A stretch of DNA of 55,435 nucleotides from a virus (taxonomy: Duplodnaviria; Caudoviricetes): IMG/VR virus record IMGVR_UViG_3300025326_000038, positions 1 to 55,435 of that record. One strand, 5' to 3'. The translations under genes were made by a program, and so were the position numbers. The notes beneath the pieces are model-generated. The model saw nothing but the letters and a program-made list of their open reading frames with translations, had not been told where the DNA came from and did not search any database. Below, piece by piece: positions 26,417 to 42,416 of the stretch. Every line of letters starts with the position of its first letter. Position 1 is the first letter of the stretch.

Positions 26417-27032
26417 TTTCCTCCTGCCTATCACCCTGCCCACCGGGGCGGTTTCGCTCCTCGCCCGGGATGTGACCGTGGCCGAGTTCTTTCACGGCTT
26501 TCCGAATTCGGCGCCGGCCATGCCCTGCTATGCGAAAGAGACGCCGGAGGGCCAGCAGGCGATTACGGCGGCCCTCGAGGGGTGGGCGGATGCCCTGCTC
26601 ACGCGCGTCGTGCTGGCTCCTTCACTGCCGCTCTGGGTGGTTCAGCGGATGGGCCGCGCGCGCGATGACGCGCTGATGCCCTACCTCCGGACCGTGGGAT
26701 GGATCCCCGGGGGCGCCTCGGCGGACCCTGCGCGCGCCCTCGACCCGTCATCTCCGCCAGCGGACACGCACACGTGGGCTCGCATGGAGGCGGCCTGGAT
26801 CGTGAGCCTCCCGCCCTTTACGACGGTCCCCGCCGAGAACATCAAGGCGGCGATCAAGCTCCTGGCGAGCAAGTGCCGGACGGCGCCGCACGTCGTGTGG
26901 ACCGGGTGGCGGATTTCTGAGTTCTTGTTCGACTGGCGCATCCTGCTCCAGGACGATCTGCTCAAGCGGGGCGGGGCCGCGGCATCGGATGGCGATGAGT
27001 TCCTTCGGGCTTCGGGGATCGAGGACGAGTGA
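26406..27032 (+). CDS. Second tail assembly chaperone-like protein
   Basis: Own AAGGAG RBS; directly before the tape measure gene. Confidence 0.5.
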   Translation: MLPDFLLPITLPTGAVSLLARDVTVAEFFHGFPNSAPAMPCYAKETPEGQQAITAALEGWADALLTRVVLAPSLPLWVVQRMGRARDDALMPYLRTVGWIPGGASADPARALDPSSPPADTHTWARMEAAWIVSLPPFTTVPAENIKAAIKLLASKCRTAPHVVWTGWRISEFLFDWRILLQDDLLKRGGAAASDGDEFLRASGIEDE

Positions 27033-29878
27033 TGGCTGACAACACCATCGGTATCAACATTACCGCGACGAACACGACCGGTCCCGAGTTCGAGAAGATC
27101 CGCGCGCTCACGAAGATGATGGGTGAGACGGTTGCATCGGCGTCGAAGAGCATGGGCGAGGGCTTCGGCCAGGTCTCGCGGGTGACGCGCGCGCTCGCCG
27201 CCGATGTCGGCTCGTCACTGAACCCGACGCTGGGTGCGATGGTCGGGAATCTCGGTCTCGTGGCGCGCGGCGCGGGCTCGATGGGTGCGGCACTCGCGGG
27301 CGTAACGGCGGTCGCCGTCGTGGGCGCGGTCGCGCTCAAGGGCTATTTCGATTCGGTGCTCAATGCGGCGGAGGCGCAAGCCAAGCTCAACATCGCAGTC
27401 CAGAGCTTCGACATCGCCTCGACACAGCAGGCGATGCTGGCCGCCTCGATCGAGCTGGAAGCCTATGCCGAGCGCGCGAAGACCTTCGGCGGGCGGCTCC
27501 GGAATGCGTTCGGCGACCTCTCGGATGCGCTCGGGATCACGCGCTCCGCGATGCAGGATCTCCAGGCGGCGGCCGCCGCCACGGCGCTGAATCTCCCGCT
27601 GGCCCAGGCGAAGAGCACGACAGAGGCGCTCCTCCAGCAGGTGCAGGCCACGATTCAGTTGCGCGGGATGCAGCTGGGTAAGGCTGAGGTCCTCCAGGAT
27701 GAGGAGGAATACCTCCGGCTCGTCAAGGCGATCAACCAGGAGTTGAGCGCCCAGTTCAGCCTGGAAGAGCGGAATCTCCGGATCAAGGCGCAGCAGGCCA
27801 TCGGCGCCGCCGGCGCCCGCAACGCCTCGCCCGCTGAGATCGGCATGATCGAGGGGCGCCTGGACAAGGACATCAGTACCCTGGCCACGCGCGCCCGCGT
27901 GGCGTTCGAGGGCCTCGAGGAGCAGCGGCGCCGGGTCAGGATGGGGCGTTTCGCCGCCGAGCTTCAGACGGCCGTCGCCGGTGCGAATCAGGCAGAAATG
28001 GGATTCACCGGCGTCAGCCCGGAGGATGCGGCGCTCGGGGTGCGGCGCGCCGCGGCCGGCGCCGAGCGGCTGCTCGCGATCGACCAGGCGCGCGTGAATG
28101 TCCTCCGCGAGCAGGGGGCGCTCACGGACGCCCAGCGGCTCTCGCTCGAGATGGCGGCGGTCGAGGCGGAGCGCCAGCTCAAGGTGCAGCAGGCCGGGTT
28201 CGATCTGGACAAGCAGGCGCTCGCCAACATGGAGGCCAGCGTACGCACGGCGGAGATCGTGCGGGCGGGACGCGAGCAGAACGAGCCACTCGCGGGCCTG
28301 GCAGCGGGCTTCCGCCTCGCGGCCGACGAAGCCGAACGCTCGGGCGCGATCATGACGACGTTCGCGCAGCAGACGGCCAGTAACATGCAGCGGGAGTTTT
28401 CGGACGGGTTCTTCAGCGTCATCACCGGCGAGTTCAAGAAGCTCCCGGACATCGGGCGACAGTTCGGCCTGGCCATGGTCCGGAGCCTCACGGATGCCTT
28501 AGCGACGATGGCGACGGCGCCCCTCTTGCGCTCGCTCCAGCAAGGGCTCGGTTTCGGCGGCGGTCAGACCTTCGTCCGCGGCCTGGGCCTCCTCGGCGCG
28601 GGCATGAGCCCGGGCGGTCTGGTCGAGGTCGGTGGGCAGCTCTTCCAGTCCGTCGCCGCGGGCGGTGGGCAGACGGTGCTCGTGCCGATGGCGGCGGGTT
28701 CTGCGGGTGGCGCCAGCGTCGCCGCCTCCATGGCGGGCATCGGGGGCCGAGCGGCAGGCGGCGGCACGGGCGGCACCGGTGGTTTCCTGAGTCTCTTCAG
28801 CGATGCGGGCTCCGCGCTCCGGGCGTTCCTCAACACGCCGCTCTCCTCGGTCGCGCCCTCGCTCTTCGGGGCCAGCACAGTCTCGGCCGGGGCCGCGTCC
28901 GCAGAGATGGCCACCGTGTCGGCGACCAGTGCCGAGATTCAGGCGATGGCGGGAGGCTCCGGTGCGACGATCGGGACCGCGCTCGGTGCGACGGCTGCCC
29001 TAGCGGGGCTAGCTTTCACGATCTACGGCGGGCTGTCAAATCCGCCCACGGCGACCAATATCGCCACGAGCGCCGTCTCGGGCGCCATCAGCGGCGCGAT
29101 CCTTGGATCATATTTCGGGCCCTACGGCACGGTGATCGGCGCCGTCGCCGGCGCGGCCCTCGGTGGCGGCGCCGCTGCCCTGGGCAAACCCGACCCGGCT
29201 GCGAAGAAAGCCCGCCAGCAGGCGGAGGTCAACCGGGCGGTGGGGGCGGCGCAGGCGCTCGGGGGCGCCGTGCAGGCGACGAACAGTGTGCAGGAACTCT
29301 TCGATCTACTCGCGGCCAATGGCTCGGGGACGAGCGGGGGCACCTCCGCGGTGGCGATCGGGACGCTCGTCTATCCCAGCGGCATGCCGGACGTCGGGCC
29401 GGGGCTCGCGATCGGTTATCCGAACGCTGCCTTTGCCGTGGCCACGGTGGACGAGTTCCGCCGCTACGGCCCCACGAGCTTCCGCGCGGTGATCCAGGCC
29501 GGCGTCAACCCCAGCTTCCTGAGTGGGCCGAATGCCGATCTCGAGACGGCGGTGAAGAGTAAGTTGCGGCAACTGATCCAGATGGAATCCCAAATCGAGC
29601 TGTCGACCTCCGATCTCCTCGCCAGCCCCTTCGGCGGCACCGTCCAGCGGACGACGACCTTCCGCGCGGATCAAGCCGGGGCCTTCGCCGGGCAGCAGCT
29701 CCGCGTCGAAGGGCCGTCCTTGAACGGGCTCACGCCGGAACAGCGGGTGGCGTTCCTGAAGGACCTCGCCAAGCTCGACCAGGACCTGAACCTCAACATC
29801 CTCTACCGCGATCCCGCCACGGACGAGATCGTGAGCATCTCGGCGACGCCGTTCTCGGGCGACGTCGTGCGGGTCTGA
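27032..29878 (+). CDS. Tape measure protein
   Basis: About 950 aa, Ala/Gly-rich helical, with a Gly-zipper hydrophobic region. Confidence 0.88.
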   Translation: MADNTIGINITATNTTGPEFEKIRALTKMMGETVASASKSMGEGFGQVSRVTRALAADVGSSLNPTLGAMVGNLGLVARGAGSMGAALAGVTAVAVVGAVALKGYFDSVLNAAEAQAKLNIAVQSFDIASTQQAMLAASIELEAYAERAKTFGGRLRNAFGDLSDALGITRSAMQDLQAAAAATALNLPLAQAKSTTEALLQQVQATIQLRGMQLGKAEVLQDEEEYLRLVKAINQELSAQFSLEERNLRIKAQQAIGAAGARNASPAEIGMIEGRLDKDISTLATRARVAFEGLEEQRRRVRMGRFAAELQTAVAGANQAEMGFTGVSPEDAALGVRRAAAGAERLLAIDQARVNVLREQGALTDAQRLSLEMAAVEAERQLKVQQAGFDLDKQALANMEASVRTAEIVRAGREQNEPLAGLAAGFRLAADEAERSGAIMTTFAQQTASNMQREFSDGFFSVITGEFKKLPDIGRQFGLAMVRSLTDALATMATAPLLRSLQQGLGFGGGQTFVRGLGLLGAGMSPGGLVEVGGQLFQSVAAGGGQTVLVPMAAGSAGGASVAASMAGIGGRAAGGGTGGTGGFLSLFSDAGSALRAFLNTPLSSVAPSLFGASTVSAGAASAEMATVSATSAEIQAMAGGSGATIGTALGATAALAGLAFTIYGGLSNPPTATNIATSAVSGAISGAILGSYFGPYGTVIGAVAGAALGGGAAALGKPDPAAKKARQQAEVNRAVGAAQALGGAVQATNSVQELFDLLAANGSGTSGGTSAVAIGTLVYPSGMPDVGPGLAIGYPNAAFAVATVDEFRRYGPTSFRAVIQAGVNPSFLSGPNADLETAVKSKLRQLIQMESQIELSTSDLLASPFGGTVQRTTTFRADQAGAFAGQQLRVEGPSLNGLTPEQRVAFLKDLAKLDQDLNLNILYRDPATDEIVSISATPFSGDVVRV

Positions 29879-29879
29879 G

Positions 29880-30455
29880 ATGGCCACCGCCACCGCGTTC
29901 TACCCGAGCCTGAGTTACGGTGTGACGCCGACGGTCATCAATTTCGGGGCCAGTGAGCCGCGCGAAGTGGCCTCGCTGATCGAGATCAACGAGGCGGCCA
30001 TCCGCAAGCAGAACGTCGCCGAAGACGGGACGACGGAGACGCTCTTTCTCCGGATCGAGACACAAGTGCGGCTGTCCTTTCAGTTTCTGACGAAGGCCAC
30101 GATCGACGCCATTCGCACCTGGTGGCGGACCCATGCCGCGCTGGGCTTGGCGTCCGGACTCAAGCTCGATCGCTTGGAGACGGCGGCGGGGCAACTGGAA
30201 TACGACACCTATAACACGTTCTTCACGACGGCCGAGCTGGTGGACGTGCAGTGGCAGCCCCGCCGAACGACCCCGCGAGGCATTCACTACGCGCTCTCGC
30301 TGACCTTCCGCCAAGGGACGCCGCCGTCCTTCACGCCGCGGGTCGGGAGCCTCTGGCTGACCGGCTATGCGCCGACCGTGCGACAGGCCTCGCTCCTGAC
30401 GCCGACAACGGGCGCGCTCGTGCTGACCGGGGTTGCGCCCACGCGGACGCCATGA
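29880..30455 (+). CDS. Distal tail-like protein with two C-terminal TPxxGxLxLTGxAP modules
   Basis: Position after tape measure; C-terminus FTPRVGSLWLTGYAPT...LTPTTGALVLTGVAPT. Confidence 0.6.
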   Translation: MATATAFYPSLSYGVTPTVINFGASEPREVASLIEINEAAIRKQNVAEDGTTETLFLRIETQVRLSFQFLTKATIDAIRTWWRTHAALGLASGLKLDRLETAAGQLEYDTYNTFFTTAELVDVQWQPRRTTPRGIHYALSLTFRQGTPPSFTPRVGSLWLTGYAPTVRQASLLTPTTGALVLTGVAPTRTP

Positions 30456-32740
30456 AAACCGCCACGGCGCCCTATCTCGTCCAGCAGAATCAGCTCCAAA
30501 CCCAGCCGCGTCTCTTCGTGCGCTTTTATGCCATTCCGTCCTTCGCCTCGGCGGTCGACTACGCCTTCTCCAGGGATTTCTCGACCGGCGAGATTCTGCA
30601 ACCGACGACAGAGAAGCTCACGATGCTGATGAAGGTGGCCGGCGTCGCGCAATCGATCAGCCCGGAGCTGGGGCAGTCGACGATCGGGCAGTTCACGCTG
30701 ACCTTCCAGGATCGAGCTGGTGAGATCCTCCGCCATATGGGGCAGCGCGTGCTACGGCTGAACGCGACCATGACGGCCACGGACCCGCCCTCAGGCGGCG
30801 CGCTCATGGTGATTGAAGATCCGTCTGGATTTCCGACCACCGGCACGCTCGACGTGTTTACCGGCGGCGTTGCCGAACGCATCCGGTATCAGGCCTACGA
30901 TGCCGTGACGCGGCGCTTTCTCGACATCACGCGTGCGGTCGATGGGACGGTCGCGGCGGGGCATGCGATCGGCGATCTCGTGCAGAACGGGGAGCAGATC
31001 CGCCCCGGGACCCGCGTGCAGATCTACGCCGGCTATGCGGGGTTGGCGGAATCCGCGTATATGCCGTATATCAAGATGCTCGTGACCTCCCGCGAAGTGG
31101 CCACGGATGGGATCACGGTGACGATCCGCGTAGCCGACATGCAGCGCACCACGCGACAGACCATTTTCCTCCAGGCGAGCCAGGACACGCCGACGCTTAT
31201 CACGGGGAATCCGCTGACGATTCTCCTGCGCGTCCTGCTCTCAACCGGCCTGGGTACGAACGGGCCGTATGACGTGCTCTCGGCTGCCGACGGGCTCAAG
31301 GTGCCCGAGAGCTTCGTGGATGTCGCCGCGATCGAAACACTGCGGGCCCTCGAGTTCCCCACCGAGACCTACGCCTATTCCCTCGTCGGACCGCAAGAGG
31401 GCAAGCGGTTTCTGGAGAAGGACATTCTGCAATCGCTCAACTGCTATCCCTTCGTGACACAGGAGGGGAAGCTCACCGTCAAGCGGTATAAGACCTTTGT
31501 CCCGCCCGGGACCATTGCGGCCCTCTTCACCCAGCAGGACATCATCAGCTGGGGATGGAACGCCGGCGACGGCAACATCATCAACATCGTGCAGTTCGAG
31601 TACGAGTTCAATCAGAGCGCCGGGGCGCCGGGCGAGTACGGGCTCCGGCAGGTGTACACGAAGACGGCGTCGTTCGATCGCTATGGGGCTAAGCCGCGCT
31701 TGCTCATTCAGTCGATGGGCATTCAGAAGAGCGAGGACGCGCAGACGATCCTCGATGATCGCGCCTTCGAGGTCTTTCGCCGATTCTCGGAGCCCCCGGC
31801 CCAGCTCACTGTGCAATGCTTCTACCGCAATCATCTGCTCGAGCCCGGGGATCTGGTGCAGGTCACCCACCCGAACATCCTCAACATCAATACCGGGCTG
31901 CGCGGGCTGGAGGACGAAGTCTTCGAGGTCGTCAACATGAGTCCCGGCTTCGATGCCGGGATGGTCACGTTGCAGCTCCTCTGGGTGGCCTCGATTGCGC
32001 CGATTACGCCACCGACCTCCGGGGGCGAGATTCCCCTTGTGCCGCCGTTCGGGCCAGGGAACTTCCCCGAGGTGGATGTCATCGGCTGGTGGGAAGACTT
32101 CTTTACGATCCTCGATCCCTCTCCAGCTGTGGGCGGCAAAGTCATGCCCAGTGGGAACTGGAACGGAACGAGCCCGTTCACCTTGTCGGGGAAGTCGATC
32201 GGCACGGTCATTGTAGCGGGCGCGGGAACGACCTTCGCGCAGATGACCCTCGCGAAAGACAATGGGGCTTTTGCGCGTGGACTCTGGATCGCCTCCAGCA
32301 ATCAAGCGCTCTGGGTGCGCTGGGCGCAGTACGGAACTGGCGCTGGGATACGATTCCTTGGGCTGGCCGGTAACACTGAAGTCGGTAATTCATTCGGCCC
32401 ATCCGACGCCCTCATCTACGATGGCGTCTACTTTACCCACACCGCTGGGGGGTTTATCGAATGTGTCTGCTGTAAGCTGACGAATCCGGCGCAACCTGCC
32501 ACGCGGGTGGAGACGCGCATCACGACCGCAATCAGCGCGGCGGATGGGGTCTACCACATCGGGAAAGCGCGCAGCAGCGGCAACGGCGCCTCGGTCGAGT
32601 TCTTCATCGACGGCGTCAGCGTGGGCGTCATCACGACGACCATTCCGACCGTCAACCTGGGTCCCGGGGCGAGCGGGAGTTCTTTCAGCGGCGCGGTCGG
32701 TCTGGAAATCGATTACTTCGGCGTGTCGGTGCCGCGATGA
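30452..32740 (+). CDS. Tail tip/baseplate hub protein with C-terminal beta-sandwich domain
   Basis: S..RYG, LEPGDLVQVTH hub-like motifs; VEFFIDG lectin-like C-terminus. Confidence 0.75.
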   Translation: MKTATAPYLVQQNQLQTQPRLFVRFYAIPSFASAVDYAFSRDFSTGEILQPTTEKLTMLMKVAGVAQSISPELGQSTIGQFTLTFQDRAGEILRHMGQRVLRLNATMTATDPPSGGALMVIEDPSGFPTTGTLDVFTGGVAERIRYQAYDAVTRRFLDITRAVDGTVAAGHAIGDLVQNGEQIRPGTRVQIYAGYAGLAESAYMPYIKMLVTSREVATDGITVTIRVADMQRTTRQTIFLQASQDTPTLITGNPLTILLRVLLSTGLGTNGPYDVLSAADGLKVPESFVDVAAIETLRALEFPTETYAYSLVGPQEGKRFLEKDILQSLNCYPFVTQEGKLTVKRYKTFVPPGTIAALFTQQDIISWGWNAGDGNIINIVQFEYEFNQSAGAPGEYGLRQVYTKTASFDRYGAKPRLLIQSMGIQKSEDAQTILDDRAFEVFRRFSEPPAQLTVQCFYRNHLLEPGDLVQVTHPNILNINTGLRGLEDEVFEVVNMSPGFDAGMVTLQLLWVASIAPITPPTSGGEIPLVPPFGPGNFPEVDVIGWWEDFFTILDPSPAVGGKVMPSGNWNGTSPFTLSGKSIGTVIVAGAGTTFAQMTLAKDNGAFARGLWIASSNQALWVRWAQYGTGAGIRFLGLAGNTEVGNSFGPSDALIYDGVYFTHTAGGFIECVCCKLTNPAQPATRVETRITTAISAADGVYHIGKARSSGNGASVEFFIDGVSVGVITTTIPTVNLGPGASGSSFSGAVGLEIDYFGVSVPR

Positions 32741-33159
32741 CGCCACTCCTCGAGCAGACGGCGGCCAAGCTCAAGCGCGACGAGGGCCGGCGGCCGAAGC
32801 CCTATCAAGATACGCGCGGGATCTGGACGGTGGGCTACGGGACAAATCTGACCAGCGGATGGTTGTCTGAGGCGGCGATGACGCAGATGTTGATGGACCG
32901 ACTCCAGGAGGTGGAGACGGCCTGCCTCGCGCTGCCGATCTGGAAGGATCTCTCGGAGCCCCGTAAGGGCGTGTTGCTGAACATCGGCTATCACGTGGGC
33001 TTCGAGGGGCTCATGCGCTTTCGGCTCATGTACCAGGCGCTCGAAGCGCGGGACTATCCACGCGCGGCGGCGGAAATTCTTGACAGCGACGCGGCGCGAG
33101 AGGTTGGCGCCCGCTACGACCGCCTCGCCAAGGCGATGCGCGAGGACGCCTGGGTATGA
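32737..33159 (+). CDS. Endolysin, phage lysozyme (GH24-like)
   Basis: DEG...PYQDTRGIWTVGYG containing the E-x8-D-x5-T triad. Confidence 0.9.
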   Translation: MTPLLEQTAAKLKRDEGRRPKPYQDTRGIWTVGYGTNLTSGWLSEAAMTQMLMDRLQEVETACLALPIWKDLSEPRKGVLLNIGYHVGFEGLMRFRLMYQALEARDYPRAAAEILDSDAAREVGARYDRLAKAMREDAWV

Positions 33160-33506
33160 CCGCCACGCTCCCGGATGAGCCACCGACCTCCGCCCGTGTC
33201 AATGGGCACCTGCGGTTGCTCGAGTACGTCGTCAAAGGGGGCCCATGGGCGCTCATCGTCGTCATTGTGCTTACGAGCCTCGCGGGCGAGTACGGCATCC
33301 TCGACAGCCAGACGCGGCGGAATGCCGATGGCATCACGTTTCACGTCGAACAATCGAAGCGGCAACAGGAGAGCCTGGAGAAGATCCTGACTGTCCTCGA
33401 AGATCAGCGCCGCATCCAGACACAGGCCGCCCTGATCGCGTGCTTCAAAGAGGCGAAAACCGATGCCGACCGATCGGACTGCATCCGAAAGTTTTCGAGC
33501 AAATAG
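33156..33506 (+). CDS. Single-TM lysis protein (holin or i-spanin-like)
   Basis: One TM helix plus coiled coil, next to the endolysin. Confidence 0.45.
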   Translation: MTATLPDEPPTSARVNGHLRLLEYVVKGGPWALIVVIVLTSLAGEYGILDSQTRRNADGITFHVEQSKRQQESLEKILTVLEDQRRIQTQAALIACFKEAKTDADRSDCIRKFSSK

Positions 33507-33514
33507 GAGCCACG

Positions 33515-33796
33515 ATGCGCTACCTCCTCTGGCTGTCCGTGGTCGCCCTGACCGGCTGCTCCCTCGCCCCCTCCGACAAGGTGCTGGAGCAGCTCGGCAA
33601 GAGCGAGCGGTCGTGGTGTGTGTCCATCACGAGCGTCTACGGCACGATGCGGGCTGGTGGGACGGGCGTCCAGGGCGGGACGATGACCTGTACGCAGGAG
33701 GGGTTAGCTGTGACGGATACTGCGTCGAAAATCGGCGTGCCGATTCTGGTGGTGCCGGAAGTGTCGATCGGCGCTCCGAAGAGGCTGGACAAGTAA
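33515..33796 (+). CDS. Lipoprotein (o-spanin candidate)
   Basis: MRYLLWLSVVALTG-C lipobox; AGGAG RBS. Confidence 0.65.
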   Translation: MRYLLWLSVVALTGCSLAPSDKVLEQLGKSERSWCVSITSVYGTMRAGGTGVQGGTMTCTQEGLAVTDTASKIGVPILVVPEVSIGAPKRLDK

Positions 33797-33936
33797 TGGA
33801 CTTCGCCGTCAGCGTCTTCGTCACCCTCGGCCTTCTCGTGGCGCTGTGGCCCTGGCTCCTCCTGGCTGCCGTCGTCGCGGTCGTGGGCTATCTCCTCTGG
33901 TCGGCGATCCGACGCCGCCGCGGGCACCTCGACTGA
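33796..33936 (+). CDS. Small two-TM holin-like peptide
   Basis: Hydrophobic 46 aa with RRRR C-tail; coupled on both sides. Confidence 0.5.
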   Translation: MDFAVSVFVTLGLLVALWPWLLLAAVVAVVGYLLWSAIRRRRGHLD

Positions 33937-34241
33937 TGGGGAGCTTCTTCAAGCAACCGTTCGAGCAGTTCCCCGTGGCAATCGACTTTGCCCCCGCGCT
34001 CCCCGCGGGCACGACCGTAAGCTCGGCCGTCTGCGCGGTGCAGGATCTGAACGACGGCACGGATCAGACGACGGCGATCCTCGTGAGCGCGAGCGCCAGT
34101 ATCTCCGGTGCGATCGCCACGGTCACGATCAAGGCCGGCACGGCGGGCCATCTTTACAACCTCCGGTTCCGGGCCACGCTCAATACGGGCTCATTGCTCG
34201 AAGAAGACGCGACGCTGTCGTGCCAACAGGAGGGCCACTAA
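33936..34241 (+). CDS. Fibre-tail adaptor-like protein
   Basis: KQP.E....IDF...L....TV.S...GTAG..Y pattern, ~100 aa. Confidence 0.6.
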   Translation: MGSFFKQPFEQFPVAIDFAPALPAGTTVSSAVCAVQDLNDGTDQTTAILVSASASISGAIATVTIKAGTAGHLYNLRFRATLNTGSLLEEDATLSCQQEGH

Positions 34242-34242
34242 G

Positions 34243-34551
34243 GTGTCGGCCATCGCCCAGCACGCTGTGGATGAGGCGATCTTTGAGCGGCAGTTCGCCT
34301 GGACGATGCTCGCGCTCACAGATCTCAGCGAGGGCGGATACGTGCAGATCCGGTGGCACGGGCGGCTCACGCCGACAAACGCGATGACGCAGTGGCGGGT
34401 GCGGGTGCGCTGGCGGGGCCAGCAGCATACCGCGATCGGTCCCGTGGACACGGGTACCCGCGCGGACGCGCTGCTCCTCGCGTGTCAGCAGGCGCTCCGG
34501 TGGCTGCAACATGAAGCCGCTACGGTTCGCATGACCGTGGTAGGAGGGTAA
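34243..34551 (+). CDS. Hypothetical protein
   Basis: ORF fills the gap in the late operon. Confidence 0.45.
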   Translation: MSAIAQHAVDEAIFERQFAWTMLALTDLSEGGYVQIRWHGRLTPTNAMTQWRVRVRWRGQQHTAIGPVDTGTRADALLLACQQALRWLQHEAATVRMTVVGG

Positions 34552-34557
34552 CTCCCC

Positions 34558-35247
34558 ATGCTGCTCTTTCCGTCACTCCACTTACGAACTGGACGACGAC
34601 TGTTCCACCTTCGTGGGAAGGGGTCTCCGCGCTCGGTTGGCCTCTCAGGTAGGCTTTACCTGACATGGGGAGTGTTGTTGCTGCTCGCCGCGCTGGCGAT
34701 CCCGGCCTCCGCGCAGACGCCCGCGGGCGTGTCCTGTCCTGTGTCGTGGTCGCTCAAGGAGTACAACGTCTACCTGGCGACCAGTCCCACCGATCCTGGG
34801 GTGAAGGTGGCCACGGTGCCCTCGGGCTTCGGACCCGCCGCGAGCTGGTCGTGGCCGTGTCCCACGGCAGCCGGGCAATACTATGTCCGCCTTGTCGCCG
34901 TCAATCTCTCGGGCGTGGAAGGCACGTCGTCTCCCGTCGTCGCCGTCGTCATTCTGCCGCCCGCGCCGCCCCCACCTCCACCCCCACCCCCGCCTCCTCC
35001 ACCTCCTCCACCTCCGCCGACAACCTCACTGCCCTCAGTCTGGACGCGGTGCGCGGACGAAAACGGCGTGTGCGCGTTTCAGGGGACGGCGGTCGTGCGC
35101 TACGGGGCCAACAGTGTCTACGTGCAGAAGACGCTGACCGATGGCACCCCGTGTACGAATGCCGTGTTTGGCGATCCGATTTTCGGAGTGTTCAAGCGCT
35201 GCGAGTACATTGATCCCGCCGCGCTCGTGGGGAGCCCGGGTCGGTGA
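34558..35247 (+). CDS. Secreted-type protein: signal peptide, FN3-like part, Pro18 linker, Cys lectin-like domain
   Basis: LLLLAALAIPASA-Q; YNVY...YYVRLVAVN; 18 prolines at 34966-35019; CADE..C...VRYG...C.N..FGDP..G..K.C. Confidence 0.65.
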   Translation: MLLFPSLHLRTGRRLFHLRGKGSPRSVGLSGRLYLTWGVLLLLAALAIPASAQTPAGVSCPVSWSLKEYNVYLATSPTDPGVKVATVPSGFGPAASWSWPCPTAAGQYYVRLVAVNLSGVEGTSSPVVAVVILPPAPPPPPPPPPPPPPPPPPPTTSLPSVWTRCADENGVCAFQGTAVVRYGANSVYVQKTLTDGTPCTNAVFGDPIFGVFKRCEYIDPAALVGSPGR

Positions 35248-35276
35248 CGCGCGCGATGCCTCCCGGTGGCGCGTAA

Positions 35277-36647
35277 ATGGCCCTCTCCCTCGGCGTCACC
35301 GCCGTTGCCTCCACCACGAGTGGCACCACAGTCACAACCCCCGCGAGGACGACGACCCCTGGGAGCACGATCGTTCTGTGCGGCGACTGGAACACGGGTG
35401 ATCCTTTTGTCTCCTTTACGGACTCCAAAGGGAATACGTGGACGCAGATCCAAACGGAGTTGGGTGCGAGTCCGAGGACCCGCATGTACTATGCGGAGAA
35501 CATTCTAGGCGGCACCAATCATACCTTCACGTTGACGATTACCAGTGCGGGCCAGCCGTCTATCTGGATGGTCGAGATTCGAGACGCCAAACTTGTCGGG
35601 GCCTTCGACCTCGGGGCCCGACAAGCGGATGCGGCCTCCCCCTTCACCTCGCCGGGGATCGCGACGACCGACGCGGACGAGTTTCTGGTCGGCTTCATGG
35701 GCGGCGATTCGGTGAGTAATCCGGCCACGCATACGGCGGGCGCGTCGATGACGCTCTTGGACCAAGTGACCAATGGCGCCTCCTTTTGGCCCGGCGCCAC
35801 GGCCTACCGCATTGTGACGGCAACGGGCACCTACAACAGTAGCTTTACCGAAGTCGGTGCCGGGAACGGTCGCGTGTGGATCGCGGCGTTCAAGGCGCCG
35901 CCCATTCAGTTCGTCAACGGCGGGAGCAACAAGACCACCGACAGTGCCCACTCGTCTCCCGTCGTCGTGACGATCCCGGCGACCGTCGCGGGCAACGATT
36001 TGGTCGTGATGGTGGAGAACGGGGAAGACCCGGCCGCGCTGCCGACGGTCTCCTCGGTCACCGCGACGGGTGCGACCTTCGTCCGTCAGGGCGGCGTGCA
36101 GAACACGAGTGGGACGGATGGGGTCAATGCGGAGTGTTGGGTGGCACGCAACGTTGCGGCCGGCATCACGTCGGTGTCCGTGGCATGGACCGCGGCCGCC
36201 GTGGGCACGGTCAGCGTGGCGGAATACTCCGGCGTCCAGGCGCTCGGGCCGGTGGTGACGGCGACGGGGAACGGGACCAGCGCGACGATCGCGCTGACCA
36301 CGCAGGATGCCGAAAACGTCGTGGTGGCCGGGCTGGGCGATGAAGACACCGCCCAGCCCGCCTTTTCCGCTGCGTCCAGCGGGACGTTCCGATCGACGCA
36401 GTATGCGCTCGGCGACGGCTCGCCTGATGTCAACGGCTGCCTGATCGACAAGGGCTCCGCGACCCCCGCGTCGGTCGTCTGTACGGTCGGGACCCCGGCC
36501 ACCGCCTCGCTGTGGGCGGCGGTGGCGCTGGAGCTGCGGAGCGTGGCGGGGGGGGCGTCGCTCACGCCGAACGCCGGCGCTACGGTGCTGGCTGGTGTCG
36601 CCCCGACCCGCGTCATCGGCACGATCCTCACCCCCACGACACCATGA
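35277..36647 (+). CDS. Two-domain beta-rich virion/adhesin protein with C-terminal TPxxG tag
   Basis: Thr/Ser/Ala-rich; TDSKGNTW, VAEYSGV; ends LTPNAGATVLAGVAPTRVIGTILTP. Confidence 0.7.
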   Translation: MALSLGVTAVASTTSGTTVTTPARTTTPGSTIVLCGDWNTGDPFVSFTDSKGNTWTQIQTELGASPRTRMYYAENILGGTNHTFTLTITSAGQPSIWMVEIRDAKLVGAFDLGARQADAASPFTSPGIATTDADEFLVGFMGGDSVSNPATHTAGASMTLLDQVTNGASFWPGATAYRIVTATGTYNSSFTEVGAGNGRVWIAAFKAPPIQFVNGGSNKTTDSAHSSPVVVTIPATVAGNDLVVMVENGEDPAALPTVSSVTATGATFVRQGGVQNTSGTDGVNAECWVARNVAAGITSVSVAWTAAAVGTVSVAEYSGVQALGPVVTATGNGTSATIALTTQDAENVVVAGLGDEDTAQPAFSAASSGTFRSTQYALGDGSPDVNGCLIDKGSATPASVVCTVGTPATASLWAAVALELRSVAGGASLTPNAGATVLAGVAPTRVIGTILTPTTP

Positions 36648-36659
36648 AAGGCTGAGCAG

Positions 36660-38099
36660 ATGACCGAGACCGGGCACGCGGGCTTCGAAGGCGCCGCCCC
36701 AGTTGTCACGATCGGCGCGGGCAATCCGGAGGCGCTCAAATATGGCAGGCTCTGGGCGCACCCTGAGTACCGCACGGTTGCGCCCGGGGAGCAGCTCGCC
36801 CAAGTGTTCCTCGCCCAGGCGCATCCGAAGCCCGGGGCGGAAGTCCTCGACTTCGGCTGCGGCACCGGCCGCGGCGCGCTCATGCTGGCGCTCCTCGGCG
36901 GGCTCAGGGTCACCATGCTCGATTTCGTGAACAACTGCCTCGACGAGGAGGTGCGCGCCATGCTGACGACGCAGGCGCACGCGCTCCGCTTCCTCAAGGC
37001 GGACCTCGAGCAGAAGCTCCCCGTCGCCGCGCCCTATGGATTCTGCACAGACGTCCTCGAACACATCCCGCCCGCCAAGGTGGACGCCGTCCTCAACAAC
37101 ATCCTGCTGGCCGCGCAACACGTCTTCTTCTCCATCTCCACGGTCGAGGACTCCTGCGGCGCATTGATCGGCGAGCCGCTCCATCTGAGCCTCCATCCCT
37201 TCGCGTGGTGGATGGAGCAATTCCGCAAGCGCGACTGCGTCGTCCACTGGTCGCAGGAGGTGGACGGCGCCTGCCTCTTCTACGTGTCGGCGTGGACCGC
37301 CGGGCCTGCGATCGTCGAGGCGGGGATTCTCAATGTGACCGATGAGCAGATCCGGGCGAACGTCCAGCACAACATCGCGCAGGGCTGGACGCAGGTGCAG
37401 CCGCATCCGACCAATGACATCGAAGTCATGATCCTCGGCGGTGGGCCGTCCATGCCGGCCTTCGAGGAAGAGATCAAGCAGCATCGCGCGCACGGCGTCA
37501 AGCTCATCACGCTCAACGGGGCGTACAATTGGGCGCTGGAGCACGGGCTCACCCCCTCCGCGCAGATCATCGTGGACGCGCGGGCGTTCAATGCGCGGTT
37601 CACCAAGCCGGTCATCGCCGGCTGCAAGTACCTCATCGCCTCCCAGTGCGATCCGGGTGTGTTCGAGGGACTGCCGATCGACCGCACGCTCATCTGGCAC
37701 ACGAGCACGGACCTCATCACGGATCTGCTCAACGCGCAGTACGAGAAGTGGTGGTACGTGCCCGGCGGGTCGACGGTGCTCCTCCGCGCGATCCCGCTGC
37801 TCCGTATGCTCGGGTTCACGCGGTTTCACCTGTACGGCTGCGATAGCTGTCTCGCGGCTGATGACGCGCATCATGCCTACGCACAACCCGAAAACGATGC
37901 AGCGGTTGTCGTGCCGCTCTCCGTCCAGGGCGACCGGATCTTCTACTGCCACCCGTGGATGATCGCGCAGGCAACCGAGCTACAAGATTTACTAAAAGTT
38001 TTGGGGGATGAGATAGAGATCAAGATTCGTGGCGATGGGCTCTTGGCGCATATACTCAATGTAGCCGCAGAGCTAGAGGACAATAAAGCAAATGCGTAA
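36660..38099 (+). CDS. SAM methyltransferase fused to a DUF115/MptE/Maf-like domain
   Basis: VLDFGCGTG and CTDVLEHIP; ILGGGPS, ITLNG, IVD, GGSTV..RA..L...LGF..FHLYG.D. Confidence 0.8.
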   Translation: MTETGHAGFEGAAPVVTIGAGNPEALKYGRLWAHPEYRTVAPGEQLAQVFLAQAHPKPGAEVLDFGCGTGRGALMLALLGGLRVTMLDFVNNCLDEEVRAMLTTQAHALRFLKADLEQKLPVAAPYGFCTDVLEHIPPAKVDAVLNNILLAAQHVFFSISTVEDSCGALIGEPLHLSLHPFAWWMEQFRKRDCVVHWSQEVDGACLFYVSAWTAGPAIVEAGILNVTDEQIRANVQHNIAQGWTQVQPHPTNDIEVMILGGGPSMPAFEEEIKQHRAHGVKLITLNGAYNWALEHGLTPSAQIIVDARAFNARFTKPVIAGCKYLIASQCDPGVFEGLPIDRTLIWHTSTDLITDLLNAQYEKWWYVPGGSTVLLRAIPLLRMLGFTRFHLYGCDSCLAADDAHHAYAQPENDAAVVVPLSVQGDRIFYCHPWMIAQATELQDLLKVLGDEIEIKIRGDGLLAHILNVAAELEDNKANA

Positions 38100-38871
38100 G
38101 GGGTCGTGTCATTCAGAGGAAGCGCGGGCGAAGAACGCCGCAGCCCACCATGGCCGCGTCCCCTGGAACAAAGGCATCAAAATGAATGCTGATCAATGTG
38201 TGAACTTTGGAAAACGCCGTGGTTTCGCTCCCTGGAACAAGGGGCTATCTATGGCGTCTCCATCGGCCGAGACATTGGCAAAGAGAAGTGCAGCGCTTCG
38301 TGGAAAACCAAAGAGCATCGAATGGCGTGCGAAGATCGCCGCAGCTCTTTTAGGGAAAGCAAAATCGTTCGAGGCTCGGATTAGGATGAGTACCGCAAAA
38401 AAGGGGAGACCCGCGCACAACAAAGGGAAAATGATGTCCCCGGAGCAGAGGGCAAATAGCGGCAGGCGCCCAGGCTCCATTCCTTGGAACAAGGGCATTC
38501 CGACAGGGATAAGCCCGATGCGCGGCCCGCGGCCAGAATACAACGGCGTGCGCTTTCGTTCGTCCTATGAAGTGCGATTTGCCAAGGCGTTGGATGCCAG
38601 AGGAATCGGATGGCAATACGAGCCAAAGCGATTTGTCTTAGGCTCATGTTCATACCTTCCTGATTTTTTCGTACCCGAGACTGGAGCATTCTGGGAGATC
38701 AAGGGGTGGCATAACGCCAGCTCGCAAATGAAGGCGAGGCTCTTCCGGGAGTTGTATCCGGAACACCCCTTGATCATTGCAACACACGACGTCATCACCA
38801 TGATGGAGGGATCGACAAATGGCAGTCGGCACGTGGAAGATCTACGCTCGCCTGGGCTAGTCGCGCAGTAA
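38092..38871 (+). CDS. Free-standing endonuclease: PWNKG/NUMOD3-like repeats + PD-(D/E)XK domain
   Basis: (P/A)(W/H)NKG x4; FRS.YE.RFA..LD..W.YEP...YLPDF.....EIKG; AT-richer. Confidence 0.8.
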   Translation: MRKGSCHSEEARAKNAAAHHGRVPWNKGIKMNADQCVNFGKRRGFAPWNKGLSMASPSAETLAKRSAALRGKPKSIEWRAKIAAALLGKAKSFEARIRMSTAKKGRPAHNKGKMMSPEQRANSGRRPGSIPWNKGIPTGISPMRGPRPEYNGVRFRSSYEVRFAKALDARGIGWQYEPKRFVLGSCSYLPDFFVPETGAFWEIKGWHNASSQMKARLFRELYPEHPLIIATHDVITMMEGSTNGSRHVEDLRSPGLVAQ

Positions 38872-39542
38872 TGCGCGATGGTAACGGCGTGAATTGTCGG
38901 GAACCCTACACGCGCAAGCGCAGGGGAATCCGCAGCCAAGCCGAGTAGGAATACTCGGAAGGTTCAGAGACTAGAGGGAGTAGGCCAGACCGGTCGAAAC
39001 CTCCACGAGCGCGCCGCATCCCGAGAGGGATGAAGAGATAGTCCCAGCCTCCGTGGAAACGCGGAGTGGCCGGATAAAGAGCCGGCTGAAGGCAAGGTCA
39101 TTTGAAGGCGAAGAAGTACCTCGGCGCGGGGACGATCACGCTCGGGGCTGGGGTGTTCAAGATGTCGCTCCACAAGACGAGCGCGAGCGCGGCGATCATC
39201 GTCCTCTCGACGCGCTCGACGTTCGCCTCGATCGGCTCGGAGATCTCGGCGCGCGGCGGCTATGTCGCGGGTGGGCGGAACATCGGCCCGGCGACGGGGC
39301 AGTGGACGGTCGGCGCGTCGGCGAAGCAGTACAAGTTCACCTACACGACGGCGGGGCTCGTGTTCACGGCCTCCGGCTCCTCGCTCATCAACATCCGGTT
39401 CGCGCTGATCCGGAATTCGACGGGCGCGGGCGCGGGCAAGGTGCTCTGCTTTGCCTCGCTGTCCTCAGCGCAGTTCACGATCGCTTCGCCAAACACGCTC
39501 TCCATTCTGCCGGCTGCGACGGGCGTCTTTACGCTGGCGTGA
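38819..39542 (+). CDS. Intron-split putative fibre subunit (exons 38819-38848 and 39105-39542; 155 aa)
   Basis: GGAGGG RBS; splicing gives MAVGTWKIYA|KAKKYLGAGTITLG..FKMSL...EIS..GGY.AGG. Confidence 0.82.
38849..39104 (+). ncRNA. ORF-less group I self-splicing intron (256 nt)
   Basis: P (aattgtcgggaa, 38892), Q (aatccgcagc, 38927), R (gttcagagacta, 38962), S (aagagatagtcc, 39033); hairpins P2, P6, P8, P9; exon ends in U, intron ends in G; P10 cgcct/aggcg. Confidence 0.92.
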
Positions 39543-39681
39543 CGTCCGACGCGCGTCGGCGGCCGCATGATGCGGGGCAGCGTCCGTCTCGACGGCGTCG
39601 GGGTCGTCCCGCGCGCCGATTGCCCGGCACCCCCATCCGCATCCGGCGCGCGGGCGCGTATGCCTAACAAAGGAGCCTCTC

Positions 39682-39999
39682 ATGCCTGACATCACGAATC
39701 CTCAAGTGGTCCGCTTCGCCAACGAACACGCCCGCGTCCTGTGCGACGCCTGGGCGACGTTCTACAACACCGCCAAAACGGCGACAACTGTCTGGGCCGG
39801 CCAGGGGCTCGGCGCGCTGGTGCCGAACACGGCCGACCTGATCGCCGACGGCTCCGACGTGGACGGCCGTGGGCGCATCACCGGCGCGGCGTTGACCTCG
39901 CTCAAGGCGTTGCTGGACGCCTTCATCGCGGATGCCGAAGCGGGAGGCAACGCCAAGCGGAACGCCTTCTTCGCGGCGGCGGTGAACCCGAGAGGCTAG
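39682..39999 (+). CDS. Hypothetical late protein
   Basis: AAGGAG RBS; helical. Confidence 0.7.
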   Translation: MPDITNPQVVRFANEHARVLCDAWATFYNTAKTATTVWAGQGLGALVPNTADLIADGSDVDGRGRITGAALTSLKALLDAFIADAEAGGNAKRNAFFAAAVNPRG

Positions 40000-40002
40000 A
40001 CG

Positions 40003-41250
40003 ATGGCACTTCCAGCTACAACCGTCTGGGAAGTCCGCACCGATGGCAACGATGCCAATGGCGGCGGGTTCGTCACCGGTGCGTCCGGCACGGATCGGTC
40101 GCAGCAGGCCGCGGCGCAGATCGCCTACACGGACCTCGTGATCGGCGGGACGACCACCGAGTTGACGAGCGCGGCGTTTCCCTTCTCAGCGGCGGAAGTC
40201 GGCAACATTCTGAACGTCACGGGCGGGACGGGGTTCACGACGGGGTGGTATCAGGTGGTCTCCGTTGCGGCGGGTGTCGCCACGATGGATCGGTCGGTCG
40301 GGACCGGCGGGAGCACGGGCGGGACGGGCAACCTCGGCGGGGCGTTTTTGACGATTGCCCAAGGGCTCACGCTCTCCACGGTCGCTGGGATGATGGTGTA
40401 TGTACGGGGAGGGACGTACAACATTACGACGGCGTTGTCGCCAGCAAGCCTTGGCGGGGCCTACCGCACACGCCTTGTGGGCTATGCGACGACGCGGGGC
40501 GATCTCGGACAACCGATCATTTCGGTTACGGCAGCCATAGATGGCTTGACTCCAGGACTTGGGTGGACGTTTGAGAATCTTGAATTGGACGGCACTTCGG
40601 TGGGTCTTAGAGGGGTGAACCCGACCACCGTACATGGAACACTGGTCAACTGTCACATTCACCATTTTGTGCAGTACGGTCTGTCGGCCTCTTACGAGTA
40701 TTGGTCATTGATACGCTGCGAAGTCGATCATAACAACAACGGGATATGGTCGAATGCCGTCGGTGGCGTCATGGATTGCTGGGTGCATGACAACACCAGC
40801 GACGGTGTTGCTGTGTTCACCACGGGTCGTGTCACGGGCAATGTGATCGCGAACAACGGCGGTCACGGCCTAATTTACAACTACGGCGGTCTGATCCTCA
40901 ATAACATCCTCTATGGTAATGGTGGGGATGGCATTCGCGCTACACAGTCCTACTCTTTCAACATCGGCGCGGGCGTTTGCGAGAATAATATCCTCGTCAA
41001 CAATGGCGGCTACGGGATCAATCAGCCGACCGCCCAGACCCACGCCGATTACCCATGGATCGACTACAACGCCTTCTACAACAACACGAGCGGGGCGCGG
41101 CAGAACGTCAACGCCTCGCCGCACGATGTGACGCTCACGGGCGATCCCTTCACAAACGCGGCGGGGGATGACTTCACTTTGAATAATACGGCTGGGGCAG
41201 GAGCCGCCTGTCGCGGTGCAGGTTTCCCCGGCACTCTACCGGGACTCTAG
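40003..41250 (+). CDS. Right-handed parallel beta-helix protein (receptor-binding/depolymerase-like)
   Basis: VYVRGGTY; repeated N.I..NG..GI rungs; DP.F......DF.L near the C-terminus. Confidence 0.85.
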   Translation: MALPATTVWEVRTDGNDANGGGFVTGASGTDRSQQAAAQIAYTDLVIGGTTTELTSAAFPFSAAEVGNILNVTGGTGFTTGWYQVVSVAAGVATMDRSVGTGGSTGGTGNLGGAFLTIAQGLTLSTVAGMMVYVRGGTYNITTALSPASLGGAYRTRLVGYATTRGDLGQPIISVTAAIDGLTPGLGWTFENLELDGTSVGLRGVNPTTVHGTLVNCHIHHFVQYGLSASYEYWSLIRCEVDHNNNGIWSNAVGGVMDCWVHDNTSDGVAVFTTGRVTGNVIANNGGHGLIYNYGGLILNNILYGNGGDGIRATQSYSFNIGAGVCENNILVNNGGYGINQPTAQTHADYPWIDYNAFYNNTSGARQNVNASPHDVTLTGDPFTNAAGDDFTLNNTAGAGAACRGAGFPGTLPGL

Positions 41251-41253
41251 ACC

Positions 41254-41466
41254 ATGCCTACAGGATATCGAGACATAGGAGTTTATCAGCACAAATCCAC
41301 AGGCGGCGATGCTGCCAAGACGGGCTACGTGTCCATTGGCGTGTATCAGGAGCAGGACGCGGCGGCGATCACACCGGCCGCCGGGGCCGCGGTGCTCACC
41401 GGCGCGGCCCCGAGCCGTGTCATCGGGACGGTTCTGACGCCAGCAGGGATGCGTAAGGGCACATAG
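41254..41466 (+). CDS. 70-aa peptide with two GYxxIGVYQ motifs and a TPxxG tag, in frame with 40003-41250
   Basis: Separated from the upstream ORF by TAG-ACC only, same frame. Confidence 0.65.
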   Translation: MPTGYRDIGVYQHKSTGGDAAKTGYVSIGVYQEQDAAAITPAAGAAVLTGAAPSRVIGTVLTPAGMRKGT

Positions 41467-41468
41467 GC

Positions 41469-42416
41469 ATGGCCGACACCTCAATTCAGCCCAACACCGG
41501 CCAGTTGGTGCTGGCTCGAGGCCATGCCATTCCGACCCCGCTTCGGGCCAGCCTTGAGATCACCGGCGCGGCCCCCTCGCTAATCCAGGGGACGGTGATC
41601 ATCCCGGGCACCGGCTCGCTGGAGTTCGGAGAGCTCGGAGGCCCAACACCTGGCACCGGGGCACTCGCGCTGATTGGCCAAACGCCGACGGTTCTCGTCG
41701 CCACCTTCCTGACGCCGGCCGCGGGCGCCGTGACCGTGGACGGGCTGGCGCCGGGCCGGGTAGTCGGCTCTCTGTTCGTCCCGGGGGTCGGGAGCCTGGT
41801 GCTCGCGGAGGGCAGCCCGAGCCCCGTCAGCGGCACGCTCCGAACCCCGGCTGCCGGAAGCCTGATCGTCTCCGGCGTCGCCCCCATCCTGGAAGTCGAT
41901 ACCCGCCTCATGGTGGCCTCTGGGAGCCTCCTGCTGACCGGGGAGGCTCCGACCATCGGCGGGGCGGTCCAGATTACCCCTGGGGCCGGTGCGCTCGTCC
42001 TGGCAGGGCAGACAGCCATCCTGGGCGGAGCGGTCCAGATCGTCCCTGGCACCGGGTTGCTGACCCTGGCGGGCCTCGAGCCGCGGCAGGACCGGGGGCT
42101 CTTCCCGGGGACGGGAGCGCTCGCGCTGGACGGGCTCGCTCCATCCCTGCGCACCGATCTCCGCCTGACGCCCGCAGCTGGCGGCTTGCTCCTGACCGGG
42201 CAAACGCTCCAGATCGGCGGGGCCGTCCAGATCGTGCCGGGGACGGGGCTTCTCACCCTCACGGGGCTGAGCCCGCTCCTGGCCATCCCATCGCCCCGGT
42301 TCATTGTCCCGGCCCGGGGGCGGGTCTACACGCTGACGGCCCGGGGGCGGGTCTACACGCTGACGGCCCGGGGGCGGGTCTACACCTTGACGGCGGAGCA
42401 CGAGGCGACGGATTGA
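41469..42416 (+). CDS. Repeat scaffold protein built of ~22-aa PxxGxLxLxGxxP units
   Basis: About 13 units; ends in (ARGRVYTLT)x3. Confidence 0.8.
   Translation: MADTSIQPNTGQLVLARGHAIPTPLRASLEITGAAPSLIQGTVIIPGTGSLEFGELGGPTPGTGALALIGQTPTVLVATFLTPAAGAVTVDGLAPGRVVGSLFVPGVGSLVLAEGSPSPVSGTLRTPAAGSLIVSGVAPILEVDTRLMVASGSLLLTGEAPTIGGAVQITPGAGALVLAGQTAILGGAVQIVPGTGLLTLAGLEPRQDRGLFPGTGALALDGLAPSLRTDLRLTPAAGGLLLTGQTLQIGGAVQIVPGTGLLTLTGLSPLLAIPSPRFIVPARGRVYTLTARGRVYTLTARGRVYTLTAEHEATD
42310..42394. repeat. 27-nt tandem repeat x3
   Basis: cggcccgggggcgggtctacacgctga; third copy has 2 substitutions. Confidence 0.93.

Follow-up and report, generated by a model that had tools for sequence, protein, structure and literature searches.

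A module of 22 residues recurs in the late proteins of a tailed virus (Duplodnaviria; Caudoviricetes) represented by IMG/VR record IMGVR_UViG_3300025326_000038. The whole record, 55,435 bases with 65% G+C and an estimated completeness of 73%, was analysed and is referred to here as the window. The module fills most of a 315-residue protein, which we call the rope, and single or paired copies (tags) form the ends of three further proteins. We consider it likely that the module is the site at which dimers of a 155-residue protein (p155, the bead) dock on the rope, building a tail fibre of the beads-on-a-string kind. The repeat and its tags, an intron in the p155 gene, and the synteny of a methyltransferase/MptE-like gene, p155 and the rope gene are all observed. 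Fibres of this architecture have already been described. New here are a quasi-palindromic docking code, a large family in uncultured phages, tags on other proteins and the linked enzyme.

The module and its four carriers

All late genes of the window are on the + strand. Those of the proposed fibre system are:

29880..30455, +, distal tail (Dit)-like protein of 191 residues with two C-terminal modules, directly 3' of the tape measure gene (modules from a hidden Markov model, HMM)
33936..34241, +, Gp77-like fibre-tail adaptor (Ig-like collar, GP4 type), a candidate dock for the rope (Pfam PF23148)
35277..36647, +, beta-rich, minor-tail-like protein of 456 residues with one C-terminal module (phrog_553 and seed HMM)
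36660..38099, +, methyltransferase + MptE-like protein of 479 residues (Pfam)
38092..38871, +, NUMOD3/endonuclease-I-like homing endonuclease open reading frame (ORF), overlapping p155 exon 1 and the 5' end of the intron
38819..38848, +, p155 exon 1, encoding MAVGTWKIYA (comparison with a relative and with intron-less homologues)
38849..39104, +, group I intron inside the p155 gene (Rfam RF00028)
39105..39542, +, p155 exon 2, 145 residues (homologues, synteny and complex prediction)
41254..41466, +, peptide of 70 residues with one C-terminal module, immediately 5' of the rope gene (HMM)
41469..42416, +, rope protein of 315 residues with 13 modules (register, HMMs and homologues)
42310..42394, +, tandem repeat of 27 nucleotides x 3.1 encoding (ARGRVYTLT)x3, the candidate anchoring end of the rope (Tandem Repeats Finder)

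Within the rope protein a 22-residue register extends over residues 7 to 275. It comprises 13 units, ten of them clear and three, at the N-terminus, degenerate. The modules are followed by a C-terminal tail, PRFIVP(ARGRVYTLT)x3AEHEATD, the DNA of which was identified as an array by Tandem Repeats Finder (96% matches). A strict regular expression run over the six frames of the window matched eight rope units and both copies in the Dit-like protein, and nothing else. We built an HMM from those eight rope units only (the seed HMM) and searched it against all six-frame ORFs of the window. Besides the rope (E 1e-61), it identified the Dit-like protein (E 1.6e-8; two units, 30333-30398 and 30399-30446), the 70-residue peptide (E 5.1e-5; unit 41371-41430) and the 456-residue protein (E 3.9e-4; unit 36564-36623, followed by ILTPTTP). 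The six frames hold no fifth carrier, the next ORF reaching only E 0.16.

An earlier note on this DNA, made from the letters alone, had described 41469-42416 as an all-repeat protein of about 13 modules and had placed the same module at the ends of three otherwise unrelated proteins. Register and HMM confirm the former, and the seed HMM finds exactly the three proteins named. They share no detected family: the 456-residue protein is a phrog_553 minor tail protein (E 1.8e-12), and the 191-residue and 70-residue proteins have no Pfam or PHROG match. The Dit identity of the 191-residue protein comes from gene order and a weak Atlas lead to PF05939 (score 0.81). The 70-residue peptide contains an internal duplication, two copies of GYxxIGVYQ, which resembles the C-terminal repeats of the rope.

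The single tags of the 456-residue protein and the 70-residue peptide are identical in 18 of 25 residues, as the earlier note had also reported, and in 54 of 75 nucleotides. Their codons differ by ten synonymous and seven non-synonymous changes. With this many differences in the DNA, synonymous ones among them, the likeness is one held at the protein level and not that of a recent DNA copy.

A second, broader HMM of 16 positions was made from 178 units in 23 proteins (consensus TPGAGSLxLTGxAPTV). It recovers the ten clear rope units and three weak ones, the Dit-like protein (E 1.1e-9) and the 70-residue peptide (E 0.0011). The core of the module, TPxxGxL-x-LxGxxPT (15 residues; 41646-42278 in the window, and the family), is nearly identical when read backwards. 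Correspondingly, the column profile has a mirror centre at position 8, where the mean cosine between mirrored columns is 0.78, compared to 0.53 or less for any other centre.

The enzyme, bead and rope cassette

Sequence comparison indicates that the group I intron splitting the p155 gene is real and that its splicing would restore the 155-residue frame. Rfam RF00028 matches 38834-39066 over the full model (1-253), scoring 68.6 bits where the gathering threshold is 50. The last base is T in exon 1 and G in the intron, and the two exon products, placed end to end, match uninterrupted homologues of 155 residues. The intron is conserved in a 46-kb relative (L006), with insertions and deletions confined to the intron. 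The NUMOD3/endonuclease-I-like ORF ends inside the intron, and an endonuclease homologue occurs at the same spot in three of 80 p155 loci (below).

p155 has 1930 homologues at E <= 0.001, the best 120 of which are 77-97% identical and mostly exactly 155 residues long; its match to phrog_644 is weak. Among 50,697 cultured-phage records there is one distant match, gp76 of EBPR siphovirus 2 (34% identity). A search of genome contigs gave six loci, all but one in records of metagenome-assembled genomes, with little information on hosts.

Using p155 alone, we fetched 80 viral loci, the best 80 of 182 relatives (66-100% identity), which together contain 15,223 ORFs. The module HMM matched 68 ORFs in 64 of these loci at E <= 1e-3, and 72 loci at E <= 0.1. 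Shuffled copies of all the ORFs gave no match at either threshold; shuffling was used since the motif is palindromic, and a reversed-sequence control (36 matches) is for that reason unusable. All array matches are on the strand of p155, and in 55 of the 80 loci the array frame opens -50 to +150 nucleotides from the p155 stop. Sixteen loci were missed at the stricter threshold. Three have almost no downstream DNA, at least seven show arrays by eye (L015, L017, L020, L022, L036, L038, L040), and the remainder (L009, L018, L021, L023, L029, L030) have at most isolated module-like stretches. Co-occurrence of module and bead, which the earlier note had named as a check on its proposal, is seen in most of these loci fetched through p155.

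Typical ropes of a low-GC group start with GWGRGTWSSxEWG, have between 6 and 25 modules and close with two copies of NPNWxxIN. Additional short-tagged proteins were found in nine of the 80 loci; examples are a protein of 258 residues ending in LTLAGYAPTVTIA and one of 141 residues with three C-terminal modules. In L044, a low-GC relative, two phrog_644 paralogues (6073-6528 and 7955-8413) flank the enzyme gene.

A homologue of the 479-residue enzyme is present in all 80 p155 loci (L007-L086), its ORF always ending at the p155 start. Enzyme, bead and rope thus form a conserved cassette. The C-terminal half of the enzyme matches PF01973 (MptE-like, E 1e-12), and it is a reasonable guess that the enzyme modifies the bead or the rope. 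One could go further and take the module as the acceptor motif of this enzyme, for example for glycosylation or methylation at its conserved Thr, with p155 as substrate or cofactor. The invariable place of the enzyme gene immediately 5' of p155 and the PF01973 match are in keeping with such a role, as is the Thr found at module position 1 in 81% of the 178 units. MptE-like domains also occur in Maf flagellin glycosyltransferases. Modification by itself leaves unexplained both the predicted interface between p155 dimer and module (below) and the fit of the 22-residue period to ropes of solved structure, and we give it little credence as the whole explanation. As a layer added to bead docking it is compatible with our reading.

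We predicted the structure of two p155 copies together with a 44-residue, two-module segment of the rope of the window. p155 was represented by a homologue (P0025) identical to exon 2 of the window in 135 of 145 residues. Interface scores (interaction prediction score from aligned errors, ipSAE) were 0.82, 0.85 and 0.84, compared to 0.00 for the best of three controls. Calibration gave a pass to 116 of 157 solved complexes and to two of 215 mismatched pairs. Between runs, at least 92% of contacts are reproduced. The predicted local distance difference test (pLDDT) of p155 is 92-94 in the complex, whereas the model of the monomer is poor (59.8); that of the partner is 66-69. Rope residues 16-42 are contacted, 27 residues that correspond to one module and a 7-residue lead-in. 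Both p155 copies use identical interface residues (3-8, 13, 87, 110, 125-130, 136-147 and 149-155), and residue 152 touches module Gly5 in one copy and Gly11 in the other. The contacts in the complex and, independently of them, the mirror symmetry of the module profile point to one two-fold-symmetric p155 dimer per quasi-palindromic module, that is, to a predicted p155:module complex of 2:1. Splicing of the intron would be required for a working bead, because exon 1 encodes residues of the predicted rope interface.

In the mechanism that we propose, the rope would be an extended polypeptide offering about 13 docking sites of 22 residues. A p155 homodimer would clamp each module, with the core of the module lying across the two-fold axis of the dimer. 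The N-terminal strand of p155 (residues 3-8, from exon 1) and its C-terminal strands (about 140-155) would close around the module, and the rope would complete a fold that p155 alone does not reach. The number of modules would set the number of beads. Such a ruler function for the repeat protein was suggested in the earlier note and is supported by synteny, by the predicted complex and by the solved precedents discussed below. The same lines of evidence support docking of p155 on the module. They do not support the form of docking given in that note, in which each module is a donor strand bound by one subunit, as the predicted dimer spans about 27 residues. That the gene of the 155-residue protein named in the note is split by an intron is confirmed by RF00028 and the intron-less homologues.

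Comparison with chain-like fibres

Two leads connect the window to known fibres. Pfam PF23148 (Gp77) matches the protein at 33936-34241 with E 1.4e-11 and 45.1 bits, above the cut-off of 27, over profile positions 1-83 of 84; the earlier note had called this protein adaptor-like. The Atlas links p155 to gp80 of GP4 fibre I (score 0.87, a lead only).

In excerpts of one report on chain-like fibres, bead proteins of 140-171 residues (GP4 gp80, VP1 gp11, A1002 gp40/gp41) form dimers, each of which makes an augmented beta-sheet with an extended rope (PMC13730344). A1002 has eleven dimers on the 268-residue fibre-dock of its nozzle-rope protein gp39, about 24 residues per dimer, and in GP4 the rope is a separate protein with five gp80 dimers, according to the same excerpts (PMC13730344). 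Excerpts of a second report describe the GP4 rope as interlocking with an Ig-like gp77 collar and, in the myophage Bas63, two whisker gp5 dimers per collar protein threaded on a rope extension, which completes the incomplete sandwiches of the dimers (PMC12609058). The connector dimers A511 gp105 and T4 gp8 and the Milano garland are assigned to the same beads-on-string principle in part of a third (PMC10811340).

The window is like GP4 in having a separate rope, a small bead that is dimeric as predicted (155 residues, 140 in GP4) and a Gp77-family adaptor in the genome. It is unlike GP4 in that neither bead nor rope is related in sequence, in having about 13 sites where GP4 has five dimers, in its 949-residue tape measure as opposed to a podovirus tail, and in carrying modules on other proteins as well. 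The likeness to Bas63 and Sf14 lies in a rope that is an extension of a structural protein and holds two dimers, comparable with the two modules of the Dit-like protein, and in a sandwich completed by the rope, comparable with the rise in p155 pLDDT from 60 to 92-94 when modelled with the module. In those phages, however, a neck collar carries the rope at its N-terminus, and the modules of the window are C-terminal on a tail-tip protein; the sequences are unrelated. A1002 shares serial sites (about 24 residues per dimer compared to a period of 22), beta-augmentation of each dimer by the rope, and two bead paralogues, gp40 and gp41, comparable with the two phrog_644 genes of L044. Its rope, unlike the ropes of the present family, which are free or fused to receptor-binding-like heads, forms one domain of a nozzle protein that is split. 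For the ropes of GP4, Bas63 and A1002, the excerpts of the two structural reports describe no repeated docking-site sequence motif (PMC13730344, PMC12609058). T4 gp8, A511 gp105 and the garlands of Milano and 7-7-1 also have small dimers on an extended chain, as described in parts of the sources, but are internal connectors of myophage baseplates with few beads, and a fold relation to p155 is unproven (PMC10811340, PMC12796354).

Rope C-termini consist of two or three copies of a short motif whose sequence differs between groups. Those compared (the window, L006, L036, L044 and L059) include ARGRVYTLT three times in the window (42292-42416), AARVYxL twice in L006 (10650-10740), NPNWxxIN twice in the low-GC group, and GRIFRVP/TRVFAVP. 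The repeated C-terminal strand motif would anchor the rope, possibly in the Gp77-like collar. By analogy with GP4, the Gp77-like protein of the window is a plausible dock for (ARGRVYTLT)x3, as the earlier note had supposed. The Gp77 domain is also present in the close relatives L004 and L005.

Several results weigh against the docking of p155 on the module and the anchoring of the rope. The evidence for the system as a whole is limited to genes and predictions. The Gp77 adaptor is present in only two of five near-complete p155-bearing phage records (94-100%, CheckV), and phmmer with the Gp77-like protein of the window finds it in one of the 80 p155 loci. Because few p155 phages have Gp77 and rope C-termini vary, the anchor is probably specific to each group. 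The tag of the 456-residue protein is missed by the broad HMM at E <= 1 and is for this reason the weakest of the four carriers. The calibration of the complex is only rough, given the 93%-identical homologue and the shallow custom alignments; the pass could stem from the model's memory of solved rope-bead complexes, and the prediction covered the rope segment as the sole type of partner folded with p155.

Similarity of p155 to known beads is also slight. At E <= 10, Pfam Gp80 (PF23140) has no match in the whole record and hmmscan of p155 against Pfam gives nothing relevant. Searches of PDB sequences with p155, a p155 profile, a rope profile and a double-module profile returned only chance-level rows, and Foldseek with the p155 model found nothing at E <= 0.001. 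The structure of the GP4 fibre I complex is reportedly PDB 8JOU (Zheng et al., J Mol Biol 2023). VIA-align places the low-confidence p155 model on its chain 8jou_a with Z 4.5 (117 of 136 residues aligned, root-mean-square deviation 4.2), and on the Sf14 neck (9c39_K, Z 5.7), a chain of a 7-7-1 tail-fibre entry (9rkv_A, 139 residues, Z 4.3) and a phi812 baseplate chain (Z 3.9). These four neighbours are all within the first eight rows, and they, like the fold matches in general (Z 4.3-5.8), fall under the Z 7-8 typical of unrelated models. Since Pfam Gp80 does not match and the fold matches are weak, we do not claim membership of the Gp80 family; our claim is that the p155 system works like the fibres of GP4, Bas63 and A1002.

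A further point concerns the rope itself, which AlphaFold2, given the rope alone, models as a solenoid in which each repeat contributes three strands (pLDDT 62, rising to 70-84 over residues 130-260; predicted template modelling score 0.61). The repeat could then be a fibre shaft that folds by itself, as a monomeric three-sided beta-solenoid or a trimeric beta-spiral, with tags as extra rungs and p155 uninvolved. Right-handed beta-helices typically have 22 residues in each turn, and the weak Foldseek neighbours of the rope model are all beta-helices or solenoids. None of these neighbours reaches E <= 0.001, the best structural match being E 0.27. A shaft of this kind also leaves unexplained why p155 is directly 5' of the array in 55 of the 80 loci, why the core is palindromic, and why p155 and the module give a confident interface with zero-scoring controls. 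We regard it as improbable, and bead docking as the better account of the rope.

Relatives, heads, tags and neighbouring genes

Two whole-phage relatives were found via the hub protein, at 97% and 82% identity. Both modules of the Dit-like protein are kept in the relatives L004 and L005, and hence in three of three phages with the window, with a conserved core and varying linkers. L006 has a LamG-like protein in place of the 456-residue protein, with the same tag at its end, followed by homologues of the 479-residue enzyme (87%), the endonuclease, the intron and p155 (97%). Its rope is the C-terminal third of a 1004-residue protein that has head domains over its first 650 residues and ends in AARVYTLQAAARVYRLS. 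The 415-residue and 70-residue genes are lacking. The LamG-like tagged gene of L006 (3893-4807) seems broken just 5' of the tag, where RRRYFVPAA is encoded twice in two frames. This may be a real frameshift by short duplication or an assembly artefact.

The rope has 22 database homologues. The closest, P0001 (543 residues, 75% identity over the array), is a chimera consisting of N-terminal modules of the rope, the C-terminal half of the domain of the 456-residue protein, and then the array. The fusion and LamG swap in L006 and the P0001 chimera, which is direct evidence, show that heads are shuffled at modules and that p155 and the enzyme stay constant.

A profile of two modules searched against 1.84 billion representatives gave 2060 clusters at E <= 0.001, 971 at <= 1e-10 and 170 at <= 1e-30. 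We surveyed the architecture of the best 150 module proteins, 147 of which were detected again by the HMM. The modal spacing of their modules is 22 residues, with a median of 12 modules and a maximum of 32. An N-terminal head of at least 100 residues is present in 120 of the 147, accompanied by a short C-terminal tail in 74 and by a C-terminal domain in 46; 16 are bare ropes like that of the window, and 11 have a C-terminal domain only. In most relatives, head domains are found at the N-terminal end of the rope. Pfam named a domain in only seven of 40 of the best 150. We take five of these as meaningful (Laminin_G_3 twice, SPRY, F5/8 type C and Rcc01698_C) and two as spurious, the latter covering stretches of only 20-28 residues, none passing threshold alone. 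The domains named would suit heads that bind carbohydrates at the distal end of the rope.

Searches of cultured phages by tblastn, with the rope or the Gp77-like protein as query, and by megablast with the whole region gave nothing. In the literature, we found no description of the motif, the p155 family or a siphovirus rope, by word searches, which cannot detect a motif.

Shuffling of heads suggests another origin for the tags, as linkers left by recombination when heads and ropes are split or swapped, with no role in binding. The P0001 chimera is of the kind expected, as is the fusion in L006 of rope and 650-residue head with loss of the 415-residue and 70-residue genes. Heads of at least 100 residues precede the array in most of the top module proteins, as given above, and the single tags belong to a head-proximal module subtype (APxRVIGTxLTP) that is also found at the junctions in P0001 and L006. 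On the other hand, 21 of the 75 nucleotides are not shared by the two single tags, and ten of the codon differences are synonymous, yet the core is kept, which indicates age and constraint at the protein level. The tags of the Dit-like protein are kept in three phages, and further tagged proteins occur in nine of the 80 loci. We therefore judge it rather unlikely that the tags are linkers only, with a somewhat better chance than the self-folding shaft or the acceptor motif. Linker and docking site are not exclusive, and one site could serve as both.

We infer that the tags bind beads, that the rope is anchored and that the beads have a role at the cell surface. By way of the tags, p155 dimers would attach to the Dit-like protein at two sites and to the 456-residue protein and the 70-residue peptide at one each. 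In the earlier note, the copies on the Dit-like protein were seen as a possible anchor of the fibre and the tagged 456-residue and 70-residue proteins as possible interchangeable tips. Because one dimer covers one contiguous module, a tagged head is not obviously bridged to the rope by a bead. By analogy with the Bas63 collar, the tags may instead place beads on the tail tip, two dimers for each Dit-like subunit, and also on the ends of receptor-binding proteins. Alternatively, contacts between beads may couple tagged proteins to the rope. The tags may also serve as joints for head shuffling. Fusion of heads at the N-terminal end of arrays in relatives fits heads at the rope N-terminus and says nothing on heads encoded separately. 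A more general form of the proposal, in which the module is a portable bead-docking tag for any virion protein in a plug-in fibre, and beads and sites are also modified by the enzyme, is put forward tentatively; we think it possible and well short of likely.

The late genes also encode a terminase, a portal and a protease-capsid fusion. Other genes among and around those of the fibre are:

27029-29878, +, tape measure protein of 949 residues
After the Dit-like and before the Gp77-like gene, +, hub-like protein of 762 residues, then a lysozyme
34558-35247, +, proline-rich protein of 229 residues, between the Gp77-like and 456-residue genes
40003..41250, +, candidate head or tailspike-like protein of 415 residues, its membership of the system suggested by position

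No sheath-like protein was found among the ORFs scanned in the window, and for this reason we infer that the virus is siphovirus-like. The 415-residue protein has only a sub-threshold Pfam match, to DUF5123. Its gene is located between p155 and the 70-residue peptide, where L006 instead has head domains fused to the rope. The 229-residue protein has a hydrophobic N-terminal stretch and an unbroken run of about 27 prolines, and Pfam and PHROG gave no family match. An HNH/endonuclease VII-like ORF is present at 25269-25943, among the tail genes 5' of the tape measure, as a second mobile-endonuclease-like late gene.

The genes for a 105-residue protein, the 415-residue protein and the 70-residue peptide (39682-41471) share one frame, and each pair is separated by TAG, one sense codon and ATG. 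The 70-residue gene ends in TAG, two bases 5' of the rope ATG. The spacing of the first three may reflect tight translational coupling. Amber read-through joining them was considered and rejected; there is no evidence for it, and TAG is not generally reassigned (stop codons of 28 ORFs checked: TGA 17, TAA 6, TAG 5). A programmed -1 frameshift fusing the 70-residue peptide to the rope was also rejected, as only four rope-frame codons are open 5' of the ATG; no slippery site was seen in the sequence at this junction. Nor do we favour a reading of the tags as a diversity-generating or invertible cassette: all copies are on one strand (a reverse transcriptase was not searched for).

Significance

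Only a few structures from cryogenic electron microscopy, published between 2023 and 2026, have revealed rope-and-bead fibres. The p155 and module family would supply a sequence rule for their docking sites, in the form of a mirror-symmetric motif with a fixed period of 22 residues. Such a motif lets ropes, bead numbers and isolated tags be read from sequence. With 2060 module clusters and 1930 bead homologues, compared to one distant match among 50,697 cultured-phage records, the design would be widespread in uncultured phages. It would also be extended to the tail tip of a siphovirus-like virus and to receptor-binding-like proteins, and an obligate enzyme partner of the rope-and-bead cassette is indicated. 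If the tags do bind beads, they could serve in laboratory systems as minimal, naturally occurring attachment points by which cargo or binding domains are joined to phage fibres.

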